Assembly (NCBI GenBank): GCA_012295275.1
Contig: CM022668.1
Location: 4,836,001 to 4,900,000, forward strand
DNA length: 64,000 bases
DNA from: Chrysomallon squamiferum
Lineage: Eukaryota > Animalia > Mollusca
Reading direction: 5' to 3'
Shown here: positions 390-13,800 of the stretch, in pieces
How the letters are laid out: the number at the start of each line of letters is the position of its first letter
Numbering within the stretch: the stretch's first letter is position 1
Translations under genes and position numbers: made by a program
Notes under the pieces: generated by a model
Told to the model about the DNA's origin: nothing
The model's input: the letters and a program-made list of their open reading frames with translations, nothing else
Database searches by the model: none

Positions 390-3300
390 CTGGAGGAGCT
401 TCGGAGAGAAACGAGAAAGAAACAAAACAAAATTATTTTAATACATCAGGTACAGAAAAGACGAATATTTTTAATGTATGTATGTCTGTATGTATGTATG
501 TATGTATATTTGTATGTATGTATGTATGTATGTGTGTATGTATGTAGGTATGTAAGAAATGGGATAACACATAGATTAAATAACGCCCCTCCGGTAAAAC
601 GTTCTGACGATTCATAAATAAAAACTGTGAAACATCTAAAAGTTCACAATTGGAAATTGAACATTTCACGTGATATAACTGAAGGGGAAGTTGTACGGAC
701 GTCAAAGGAAACAGAAGCATTATCGAATCAATTAACATGAAATTACCAAGGCAGCACACTTCAGTCTGATTCGCACAGGTGTAAGCATCATCTTCAGAGC
801 CAAGGGTACTTAAACAGTCTGATGATGACGCACACACGGCAGTTACTACCATATGAGCCGAACAGTCTAAAAGGAAAATTAGAAAGGAAAAAAGAAAAGA
901 TTAAAACTGAGTCTCTCTGTTTCTGTCTCTATATCGTTCTCTTTCTTTATCAGTTTCTCTCTCTCTGAAACATTTGAACTAAAACTGGATCAATGTGTAA
1001 CGTAGAAGTATCTATTGATGATGTAAGTAACAGCTTCAGCGAGGTGAATAATAAATAAATGAAATAAAAAGTGTATAAAATAAAAACAGCAATGATAACA
1101 CTTACGCGGAAATGCTTTGTTTGTATAAACGCATGTATGTTTGTATGTATGAAATGAGTGTCTGTTTATATGAATGCACTGATCTAAACATCTGGATCTG
1201 TTTCATGCATTTTTTTTTCTATGGAGAAACTAAATGAAGAAAAGATCTTTGATATCTTACCTGGAAGATTACCTTCAAAGAAAAAAGAAAAAAACAGAAG
1301 ATATATATATTATTTTAATACATGAGGGAGAAGACGAATATTTTTAATGTTTATATATATCTATCTATGTACATATATGTTTACATTCACAACACAGTTT
1401 AAAAGTACAAACAAAAGTGTTCAGGGGTTATTCAAATCTACTTGTAAATTACTTAAATGTACTTTCTCAACATATATGAAGAAAAACAAAACATCTAACA
1501 TTTCACGAGAAACATTCTAAAACAAACCATGTTCGTTGAGGACATTTTAAAACATTTCCGTATTTTTTACTGAATTCATTAGTAGATCCTTGGAGAATAT
1601 GACTTTATCCAGACATATGATTCTGAAAATCGCGATGCGAGTAAGATGTCGTTTTGACTGCAAATTATGATGGGACATGCAGTTATTACACGTTTCATAG
1701 TCGCTAAGTAAAATAGTGCTCCGTCACCATTTTACACTTGACAAAGATGCGGCCATTGTCAAGTATTTTGAAAATTATTTGATCTACCCTTTTAATCTGT
1801 CAAATTTAAAATTTATTCAAAAAAGTGTTTTGTGGTTTGTAATGTACGATTCCAGAAGACTTCTAGTTGAGGTTTCAAAATATCTGTTTTTGCTTTTGAG
1901 CCGAGGATGAGGATTTGCTCTATTGAGAGTATTTAAAAATGATTTTCCCAGTCATGGGCAGGTAGATTAAAATATTCACACGAATGACCTTTTCGTGCTT
2001 AAAATCATATTTATGAAAAACAGTTCTAACTCGTAACATATTTTCTGTTTTGCCGAAACGAGATTAAATGAGAAGAAAGTTTGAAAAAGTTGACATATTT
2101 TACAGTATCCTTTTCAGAAATAAAATAACATACCTTTAGTGAAATATTATAAAAGAAAACTGACACAACTGTCTCCTTCTGGAGATAGTTATGACAGTAT
2201 ATAAATAATTTTTTTTTTTTTTTTTTTTTTTTTAAATTGCCCCCTGGAAATAGAACGTTATACGTGATGTTGCTGAAGAGAAGTTGTACGGACGTAAAAG
2301 AAGACACAAGCATTATCCAATCAGTTAACATGAACTTACAATAGCAGCACACGTGAGCTGGATCCTCACATCTGTATTCTTCAGTAATATCGAGAGACAG
2401 AGTCATACACTCTGCCCCTATCACACACTGGGAAGATGGGCTTGGATGTTCGACACAGGCTAAAAGGAATACCAGAGAGGAGAAAAAGAAAAATCGTTAA
2501 AGTAGAAAGATTCTCTCTCTCTCTCAGTTTTTGTCTATATATCATTTTCTTTCTTTATCACTCTCTCTGAATGATTTGAACTGAAACGGATATAATGTGA
2601 AGCGGTCAAAAGCTTATGAGTGATGTAAGTAACAGCGTCAGTCAGACGAGCAATAAATCAATGAAATTATAAAAAACAATAACACTTACCTGGAGACGAT
2701 TTGATCGAAAAAAGTATGTATTTTTTGAATGTACGTACGTATGTATGTATGTTGCTATGGATAAGACAATGTCTTTATGTTCATGCACTGATCTAAATAT
2801 ATAGGCATGTTTAATGTATTCTTTATGAAGAAATTAAATTAAGAAAATATGATTGATATCTTACCTGGAAGAGGAACTTCAAAAAAAAAAGAAATATATA
2901 TTTATATTATTTCAATATATTAGGGAGAAGATGAATATTTTCAATGTGTGTCTGTATGTATGTATACATTTTAAAACTATAAATAAAAGCGTTCAGCAGT
3001 TTATTCAAATCCGCTTCTAGATTAGTACAATATATAACTGAACCTATTTAGAATTATTTAGTAGTAATCCTTTCTCAACAGATATGAAGAAAAACAAAAC
3101 ATCTAACATTTCACGAAAAACATTCTTAAACAAAACATATCCTTTGAAAACATTTTAAAACATGTCTGCATCTTTTACTCATTTCATTCGTAAATCCTTC
3201 CAGAGACAGAAAATCACGATGCCAGAATAATGTCATTTTGACTGCAACCTAGGATGGCACATGGAGTTATTAAACGTTTCATAGTCTGCAAGCACACACA

Positions 3301-10867: not shown

Positions 10868-13800
10868 TTAATATGACTGTATATTCTTCTTCGAGCTTTT
10901 CTCCAGATTTCTCTTTCTAGATCCTGACATTCCTGCAATGAGACAACAAAATAAAAAAGGAAACGTAACTTGATGTTTGTTATTAAAGTAAATTACTTTT
11001 CTCATGTTCCTCTTCAGTTTAAAAAGAACGAGAAGCAAGCTTGAAACAGTTGACACAATTTACAGAAACAAAATAACATAAATATTTTATCAAAGTGAAA
11101 TGGGATAACAGATAGATTAAATAACGCCCCTCCGGTAAAACGTTCTGACGATTCATAAATAAAAACTGTAAAACGTTTAAAAGTTCACAGTTGGAAACTG
11201 AACGTTTCACGTGATACAGCTGAAGGGGAAGTTGTACGGACGTCAAAGGAAACACCAGCATTATCAAATCAATTAACATGAAGTTACCATAGCAGCACAC
11301 TTCAGCTGCATTCACACAAGCGTGAGTAGGAGCTTCAGAGCCAAGGGCATCCGAACAGGCTGATTGTGTCACACACGCGGCAGCTGGGTCTGAATGAATC
11401 GAACAGTCTAGAAGGAAAATTAGAAAGGAAAAAAGAAAAGATTAAAACTGAGTCTCTCTGTTTCTGTCTGTATATCGTTCTCTTTCTTTATCAATCTCTC
11501 TCTCTGAAACATTTGAATTAAAACTGGAACAATGTGTAACATAGAAATATCTCTTGGATGATGTAAGTAACAGCTTCAACGAGGTGAATAATATATCAAT
11601 GAAATCAAAAATATATCAAATAAAAAATAACAACAAACAGCAATAATAACACACGCGGAAATGCTTTGTTTGTATATACGCATGTATGTATGTATGTATG
11701 TATGTATGTATGTATGTATGTATGTATGTATGTATGTATGTATGTATGTATGTATGTATGTATGTATGAAATGAGTATCTGTTTATATGAATGGACTGAT
11801 CTAAATATCTGGATGTGTTTCATGCATTTTTTTCTATGGAGAAACTAAATTAAGAAAAGATCTTTGATATCTTACCTGGAAGAGGAGCTTCAAATGAAAA
11901 AAAAAAAAAATAAATAAAATATATATATATATATTATTATTATTATTATTATTATTATTATTATTATTATTATTATTTCATTACATCAGGTAGGGAGAAG
12001 AGCGATGTAAGTAACAGCTTCAGTCAGATGAACAATAAATAAATGAAATTGTAAAAAATAATAATAAAGAGCAATAATAACTCTTACGTGGAGACGCTTT
12101 GAGCGAAAGATAAAAAAATATTTTTGTATGTGTGGATAAGAGTATGTCTTTATATCAGTGATCTGATCTAAATATCTGGACATGTTTCATGTATTTCGTT
12201 ATGGAGAAAAAAGAAAAGAAAAAAGAATACATTATATATCTATTATTTTAATACATTAGGGAGAAGACGAATATTTTTAATGTTTATATATATCTATCTA
12301 TGTACATATATGTTTACATTCACAACACAGTTGAAAAGTATAAACAAAAGTGTTCAGGGGTTATTCAAATCTGCTTCTAAATTAATACAATATATTTCTG
12401 AACCTATTTAAATTTATTTACAAGGTATCCTTTCTCAACATATATGAAGAAAAACAAAACATCGAACATTTCACGAGAAACATTCTAAAACAAACCATGT
12501 TCGTTGAGGACATTTTAAAACATTTCCGTATTTTTTACTGAATTCATTAGTAGATCCTTTGAGAATATGACTTTATCCAGACATATGATTCTGAAAGTCG
12601 CGATGCGAGTAAGATGTCGTTTTGACTGCAAATTATGATGGGACATGCAGTTATTACACGTTTCATAGTCGCTAAGTAAAATAGTGCTCCGTCACCATTT
12701 TACACTTGACAAAGATGCGGCCATTGTCAAGTATTTTGAAAATTATTTAATCTTCCCCTTTTAATCTGTCAATTTTAACATTTAATGAAAAAAGTGTTTT
12801 GTGGTTTGTAACGTGCGATTCCAGAAGACTTCTAGTTGAGGTTTGAAAATATCTGTTTTTGCTTTTGAACCGAGGATGAGGATTTGCTCTATTGAGAGTA
12901 TTTTAAAATGATTTTCCCAATCATGGGCAGCTGGATTAAAATATTCACACGAATGACATTTTCGTGCTTAAAATCATATTTATGGAAAACAGTTCTAACT
13001 CGTAACATATTTTCTATTTTGCCGAAACGTGATTAAATGAGAAGTAATCTTGAAAAAGTTGAAATAATTTACAGTATCTTTTCAGAAATAAAATAACATA
13101 CCTTTAGTGAAATATTATAAAAGAAAAATGACACAACTGTCTCCTTCTGGAGATAGTTATGACGGTATATAAATAAATATATATATATTTTTTTTAAATT
13201 GCCCTGTGGAAATAGAACGTTATACGTGATGTTGCTGAAGAGAAGCTGTACGGACGTAAAAGAAGACACAAGCATTATCCAATCAGTTAACATGGACTTA
13301 CTATAGCAGCACACGTGAGCTGCATCCGCACATCTGAAATCTTCAGTAGTAAGGGCAGACATAAGTGTACAAGCTTCTCCTGTCATACATTGGGAATCTT
13401 CGCTTGGATGATCGACACAGTCTAAAAGGAAAAAAAAAAAATCGTTAAAGTAGAAAGATACTCTCTCTCTCTCTCTCTCAGTTTTTGTCTGTATATCATT
13501 TTCTTTCTTTATCACTCTCTCTGAATGATTTGAATTAAGACGGATATAATGTGAAGCGGTCAAACGTTTATGAGCGATGTAAGATGAACAACAAATAAAT
13601 GAAATTATAGAAAAATAATAATAAAGAGCAATAATAAGAGTTACGTGGAGACGCTTTGAGCGAAAGAAAAAAATATGTTTGTATGTATATATGGATAAGA
13701 GTATGTGTTTATATCAGTGATCTGATCAAGTTTCATGTATATCTTTATGGAGAAACTAAATTAAGAAGAGATGTTTGATATCTTACCTGGAAGAGGAGCT

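Follow-up and report, generated by a model that had tools for sequence, protein, structure and literature searches.

The 64,000-nucleotide stretch of the Chrysomallon squamiferum genome analysed here (assembly GCA_012295275.1, contig CM022668.1, positions 4,836,001 to 4,900,000), referred to throughout as the window, is about 30% GC and rich in microsatellites, and holds a tandem cluster of one gene family. In the gene models, a signal-peptide exon is followed by a coiled-coil exon, micro-exons, one to three exons that each encode a six-cysteine (Cys) domain or head, and a short tail. Every head has its own symmetrical phase 1-1 exon. The main result is that the heads of six of these exons are, with little room for doubt, under positive selection. 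Taking the evidence together, we think it fairly likely that this is a secreted tandem family in which genes and domains were recently duplicated, whose heads then evolved under positive selection, and which binds a changing foreign target.

Divergence of the six-Cys exons

Exons are named here by their first coding nucleotide. The first-pass annotation, made from the sequence alone, had singled out exons 866 and 11407 as diverging much faster than their introns, and its counts are confirmed. The two exons differ at exactly 35/120 nucleotides (nt) and 22/39 residues, and all 17 of the shared residues are encoded by identical codons. By comparison the downstream introns differ at only 13/187 positions, with no gaps (previously given as about 13/186), and the upstream introns at 18/275, making the exons significantly more divergent in both comparisons (Fisher, p=3e-7 and 9e-9). 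The differences are distributed over the three codon positions as 15/15/5, and half of the 22 changed codons (11) carry two or three differences. The exons had been treated as single head exons, which they are not: exon 866 encodes the third domain of gene A and exon 11407 the second domain of the frameshifted gene B, and in the family recombination has also moved pieces of exons about. Neither is an assembly error, because the public DNA run X1 contains both versions at similar depth, one contig matching 684-882 with 1 difference (depth 43.5) and another having the letters of the 11407 type (depth 42). Inside the Cys exons of gene A, three differences between X1 and the assembly are listed (846, 3697 and 3748), two of them replacements when read by hand; these are too few to test.

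Codon models were fitted to 11 aligned exons, leaving out a cationic 99-nt exon and a fragment at 63400. Pairwise values divide them in two. Six exons (866, 11407, 2459, 3758, 13421 and 36604), called young here, have synonymous divergence (dS) of 0-0.34, close to that of their flanks, and a ratio of nonsynonymous (dN) to synonymous divergence of 1.7-6, undefined in one pair where dS is 0. Of the 15 young pairs, 12 have dN 2-3.6 times dS, one has 1.7 times, and the two closest pairs have more. Pairs that include one of the five older exons have dN/dS of 0.3-1.3, and dS reaches 0.5-2 in old pairs.

For the young six, dN/dS (omega) under model M0 is 5.7 (F1x4) or 6.4 (F3x4). Model M2a is preferred over M1a with a likelihood ratio (LR) of 39.0, or 22.7 when double and triple mutations are allowed, and assigns some 77% of sites to its selected class, with the selection falling on residues between the Cys; M8 against M8a (F3x4) gives 45.5 and 32.5. 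None of 33 data sets simulated without selection and with multiple hits reached the observed LR (maximum 15.1) or omega (maximum 2.0). The tree length is 1.6-2.0 for dN and 0.25-0.28 for dS (0.05 under the multi-hit model), compared with 0.36 for an 88-nt stretch of downstream intron, so that amino acids in the young heads have changed 4-6 times faster than silent sites and introns. The focal pair alone, exons 866 and 11407, gives an omega of 5.4 (p=0.003), with changes on both branches (21 vs 13), and a count test pooled over three sister pairs gives p=0.018. The burst of selection is recent and limited to the clade of multi-head genes. The earlier proposal of diversifying selection on the Cys domain thus stands for the six young domains, with omega of about 6, and does not extend to the five older ones.

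Several observations weigh against this conclusion. The codon models are our own implementation, validated only by the null simulation. The five older exons have an omega of 0.58 (p=0.16, not significant), and for all 11 exons together the test is significant without multi-hit mutations (p=0.005) and not with them (p=0.30). For the focal pair, a conservative count test places dN above dS only at p=0.054, and the silent rate tends to exceed that of the introns (5/30 vs 16/238, p=0.07). Taken one at a time, neither of the two other closest pairs, which differ at 7 and 10 nt, outpaces its own introns (p=0.59 and 0.46). Finally, four genes (B, D, G and H) appear to be broken, and three of the six young exons therefore lie in probable pseudogenes.

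The last point could be taken to indicate relaxed constraint or pseudogene decay or, as has been suggested for conotoxins, local hypermutation of the exon, and the many multi-position codons of the focal pair, together with the better fit obtained with multi-hit terms, are in keeping with it. Such explanations are nevertheless most improbable. Relaxation cannot raise omega above 1, and hypermutation would lift dS above the introns, as in the mature exon of conotoxins, for which raised Ds is tabulated (PMC3862624, Table 5). Here dS is at the intron rate with dN five times higher, and both focal branches have changed.

A different proposal would dispense with selection for novelty altogether, gene conversion having made the introns alike or brought in exon cores of older origin, so that the exons would merely seem fast. 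Recombination is certainly present: in exons 2459, 13421, 3758 and 36604, the 2 informative sites at or before nt 16 group the exons in one way and the 17 at nt 32-99 in another, which implies that the cores of exons have been transferred between flanks that are almost identical. Exons 2459 and 3758 have a dS of 0.12 and a downstream flank divergence of only 0.01, and in the focal pair dS (0.16) exceeds intron divergence (0.07). However, conversion carries silent and replacement sites together, yet dN exceeds dS in the young pairs. Silent sites are free to vary, as seen from dS in the old pairs, and in the young exons they are unsaturated and track the introns. Moreover, the tests hold in the focal pair alone and in a subset of four exons, and when they are split at the breakpoint both parts are significant (p=7e-5 and 3e-5; with multi-hit mutations 0.002 and 3e-4). 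Recombination adds diversity and does not explain dN > dS; as a whole explanation gene conversion is largely refuted, and we regard it as very unlikely.

The first-pass annotation also pointed to fixed Cys codons and to the lack of purely synonymous changes, neither of which is a special signal. Both Cys codons are used at 5/6 positions across the 11 exons, so there is no codon fixation of the conotoxin type, and the invariance within the young six fits their low silent rate. Unchanged codons of the focal pair contain 11.3 silent sites, and at the intron rate the probability of no silent change is 0.47.

Head structure and searches for relatives

There are twelve six-Cys exons in the window, as previously counted. 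In all twelve the last two Cys are adjacent, the spacing being 9-5-12-6-0 in nine and slightly different in three. The heads are acidic in 11/12 cases, the exception being the basic head of gene G. AlphaFold2 produced a model from the 11-exon alignment with a predicted local distance difference test score (pLDDT) of 87.6, and one for the cationic head with a pLDDT of 74. In a wide structural search (VIA), 14/17 rows were defensins or defensin-like proteins (best Z 3.8, root-mean-square deviation 1.7, 35 residues aligned), and all 4 rows for the cationic head were of defensin type (best Z 2.9). The top rows are platypus venom defensin-like peptides and the double-defensin AvBD11, the latter matching as two separate defensin-like halves; these are vertebrate proteins, with 19-26% identity to the heads and Z below 4. 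Atlas similarity gave a lead of 0.79 to a PF00711 cluster, and a first hit (0.83) that was unnamed. In β-defensins the Cys pair 1-5, 2-4 and 3-6. On this basis the heads probably adopt a β-defensin-like fold, as far as structure prediction can indicate. Against it, the Z scores are under the level that the tool regards as meaningful and would imply at most a shared fold, and Foldseek found no match to the head model.

Sequence searches identified no animal homologue in the sequence sets, metagenomes and profiles searched. In a set of 5.8 billion sequences, the 11-exon alignment yielded 0/2119 homologues among longer candidates and 0/1 near its length, and the signal-exon stretch 0/2; among metagenome contigs, 0/35 stretches were homologous. 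These counts are weak evidence. No Pfam family reached its cut-off, the heads had no Pfam defensin match, and Rfam gave 0 matches. The only sequence match in the PDB is leech carboxypeptidase inhibitor (1dtv; E=0.061, 19 positions, in the second half of the domain). It also matches the first part of the head very weakly further downstream, as if circularly permuted, which is probably chance.

The six profile-search matches were set aside as compositional or convergent: five are acidic bacterial lipoprotein-like proteins, one of them recorded as Deltaproteobacteria, and one is an unrelated repeat. The lipoprotein-like proteins (P0004 and P0006-P0009) contain acidic six-Cys repeats in tandem, each closed by CC, with acidic linkers as well, and this repeat has no Pfam family. 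Cephalotoxins were also considered as relatives and rejected, their domain content as described in bioRxiv 10.64898/2026.04.09.716377 being unrelated. The six Cys with terminal CC are shared with clip domains (Pfam CLIP_1), to which 2/11 exons have weak matches (best E=0.3; 10.4 bits, against a cut-off of 26). Clip-domain serine proteases have a trypsin-like domain after the clip domain, whereas genes C, E and F stop within a few residues of the head.

Architecture and possible function

The signal-peptide exon ends in a His/Trp-rich segment and a Cys. Signal and coiled-coil exons had been described as nearly invariant, and this is borne out. Among six copies of the signal exon, 10/116 columns vary, compared with 36/100 in the 5' flank; third positions alone vary at 1/38 (p=2e-5 against the flank), which may reflect constraint or conversion limited to the exon. 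Coiled-coil exons of genes A, C, D and E differ at a proportion of nonsynonymous sites (pN) of 0-0.08. This exon is usually 65 nt and encodes 21-22 residues, with hydrophobic residues at the a and d positions of three heptads (read by eye) and a Cys near its end, so that the predicted coiled coil is flanked by Cys on both sides. The micro-exons are phase 1-1, of 3-15 nt, and encode Pro/Thr/Ala/Glu linkers.

As judged from sequence, the proteins are likely to be secreted. The Cys at both ends of the three-heptad coiled coil would lock it by disulfides into a dimer or trimer, and the Pro/Thr/Ala linker could work as an adjustable stalk. Such an assembly would present several variable heads together to a variable foreign target, as a collectin-type multivalent binder does, and the heads would change because the target that they bind keeps changing. 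Collectins and ficolins have a Cys-locked oligomerising base, a stalk and several recognition heads. The likeness is one of layout only, by analogy, since they have collagen, C-type lectin or fibrinogen domains that are absent here.

The arms-race ligand-binding role put forward in the first-pass annotation is a plausible one. A role of the heads in host defence has a little under an even chance in our estimation. Within it, the acidity of 11/12 heads leads us to favour proteins that recognise or neutralise molecules of microbes or parasites over ones that kill by way of membranes. The predicted fold invites comparison with the big and β-defensins (trans-defensins). In the account of PMC7203481, these share with the family a six-Cys domain ending in CC, tandem duplication, rapid diversification and gene loss, and have a phase-1 intron directly 5' of the Cys domain; exon shuffling of the β-defensin module onto new leaders is there one of two proposed routes. 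All Cys exons in four of our gene models start in phase 1. The differences are considerable: big defensins have an N-terminal domain that is hydrophobic and globular, a dibasic prodomain and a cationic C-terminal domain, and the present family has instead a coiled coil, a micro-exon stalk and up to three mostly acidic heads per gene.

The same selection would be expected if the proteins acted in venom or saliva or inhibited proteases, their heads following changes in the proteins of prey or host. Conotoxins, as described in PMC3862624 and PMC3823881, likewise have a near-invariant signal exon, conserved introns and hypervariable inter-Cys loops on an exon of their own. Platypus venom peptides head the fold rows, the one PDB sequence match is an inhibitor, and acidic heads suit protein targets. 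However, the fold rows are tied with ordinary β-defensins, the inhibitor match is not significant, and no dibasic processing site is seen before the heads in four gene models. In contrast to conotoxins, with their raised silent rate (PMC3862624) and site-specific Cys codon bias (PMC3823881), the family has neither a raised silent rate in the variable exon nor fixed Cys codons, nor an indel-rich mature exon; its architecture is multidomain and stalked, and no sequence relation is shown. We therefore put the venom or inhibitor role at perhaps one chance in four. A further point against it is that small toxins rarely have long stalks and an oligomerisation base.

Selected, secreted Cys-rich modules on near-invariant bases are found in reproduction and allorecognition as well, and the heads could be gamete, egg-coat or self/non-self recognition modules under sexual conflict or allorecognition; a recent burst in one clade only would agree with this. 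The many broken copies and the defensin-like fold better fit immune birth-and-death, and nothing points to reproductive tissue, which leaves this role an unlikely one. The favoured order of roles is thus host defence, then venom, saliva or protease inhibition, then reproduction.

It is tempting to go further and regard the family as invertebrate recognition proteins resembling miniature collectins built from defensin parts, in which the disulfide-locked coiled coil is constant, the micro-exons set the length of the stalk, and hypervariable β-defensin-like heads, varying in number, are reshuffled by duplication and recombination of exons, and as a living example of the exon-shuffling route; this is a speculative proposal and more probably wrong than right. 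The exon-faster-than-intron pattern is already well known, and the architecture seems to be undescribed: no account of it was found in the literature searched, which took in few subscription papers and no supplements. Selection of this strength points to a protein in conflict with a partner that changes, which makes the family a promising place to look for a new invertebrate immune or venom system. It is worth adding that in the cluster a predicted defensin-like module on a symmetrical exon has undergone duplication and recombination and has been joined to a new carrier.

Gene models and other features of the cluster

Features of the cluster are collected in Table 1. The 3' end of gene A was not found within the window, and gene D has no signal exon that we could find and has GG in place of the AG acceptor at exon 36604. 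In each of genes B and G the coiled-coil exon has 66 nt where 65 are usual; in gene B (15145-15080) this is a one-base frameshift upstream of exon 11407, and in gene G it is likewise a frameshift. At the gene B site, X1 has contigs of depth 243/299 without the extra base, from which it appears that some X1 copies carry it.

Table 1. Coordinates of genes, exons and introns in the window.
Feature	Position	Strand	Details
Gene A, three heads	390..5715	-	Signal/His-Trp exon 5715-5600; coiled-coil exon 5145-5081; frame open up to third Cys exon
Gene A micro-exons	4832-4821, 4013-4002, 2876-2865, 1272-1261, 398-390	-	
Gene A Cys exons	3758-3639, 2459-2340, 866-747	-	
Six-Cys exon, gene A domain 1, young clade	3639..3758	-	
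Six-Cys exon, gene A domain 2, young clade	2340..2459	-	
Six-Cys exon, gene A domain 3, focal	747..866	-	120 nt, phase 1-1; DNA run X1
Intron after exon 866	560..746	-	13/187 different from 11101-11287
Gene B, two heads	10867..15620	-	Signal exon 15620-15505; micro-exons; Cys exons 13421-13302 and 11407-11288; tail exon from 10932
Six-Cys exon, gene B domain 1, young clade	13302..13421	-	
Six-Cys exon, gene B domain 2 (last), focal	11288..11407	-	120 nt, phase 1-1; DNA run X1
Intron after exon 11407	11101..11287	-	Aligned with 560-746
Gene C, single head	17640..20746	-	Cys exon 18058-17939; two 3-nt and one 12-nt micro-exons; no break seen
Gene G, second signal-peptide subfamily	25608..32903	+	12 candidate 12-nt Pro/Thr micro-exons; cationic 99-nt six-Cys exon 32805-32903 (the twelfth)
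Gene D remnant	34910..38078	-	Cys exons 36604-36485 (young clade) and 35370-35254
Gene H	41015..44051	-	Signal exon at 44051; degenerate coiled-coil exon at 42762; Cys exon 41433-41314
Gene E, single head	47270..51187	+	Cys exon 50698-50817 with GC donor; three micro-exons; no break seen
Gene F, second subfamily, one head	56110..61002	-	Five micro-exons; Cys exon 56522-56406; no break seen
Six compared signal exons	5600-5715, 15505-15620, 20631-20746, 21726-21841, 43936-44051, 47270-47385		

In runs X2-X4 the RNA contigs miss gene A's three Cys exons, a result without evidential weight, and a search of public sequencing runs gave no RNA run with the sequence sought among the runs listed. One low-depth RNA contig, from a paralogue with roughly 83% identity (139 bases, 23 of them different), passes from the signal exon into sequence resembling the start of the coiled-coil exon, and at this junction DNA contigs have a donor and an intron (loose ends read by hand). 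This lends weak support to the family being spliced as modelled.

The array of candidate micro-exons in gene G (26850-31413, + strand) lies in tandem repeats of about 300 nt, most of its exons coding for Pro-Thr-Thr, and would encode a mucin-like stalk with one candidate exon per repeat. Candidate 3-nt micro-exons with canonical splice sites occur at 20065-20067, 18498-18500 and 37686-37688 (- strand). Outside the gene models, extra candidate 9-nt exons precede Cys exons at 3845-3853, 12088-12096 and 36691-36699 (- strand), possibly representing alternative splicing of linker length.

The cluster evolves by birth-and-death. Orphan signal exons are present at 21841, 23130, 24589 and 54434, and there are truncated relics of Cys exons at 38430-38520 (+), 44690-44800 (+) and 63387-63422 (-), two of the three being inverted. 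A 200-base assembly gap (45401-45600) lies between parts of the cluster with opposite orientation. Finally, 81 X1 contigs were found on the 801 bases around 15513-15620, many of them with variant signal exons, which suggests that the family extends well beyond the window.

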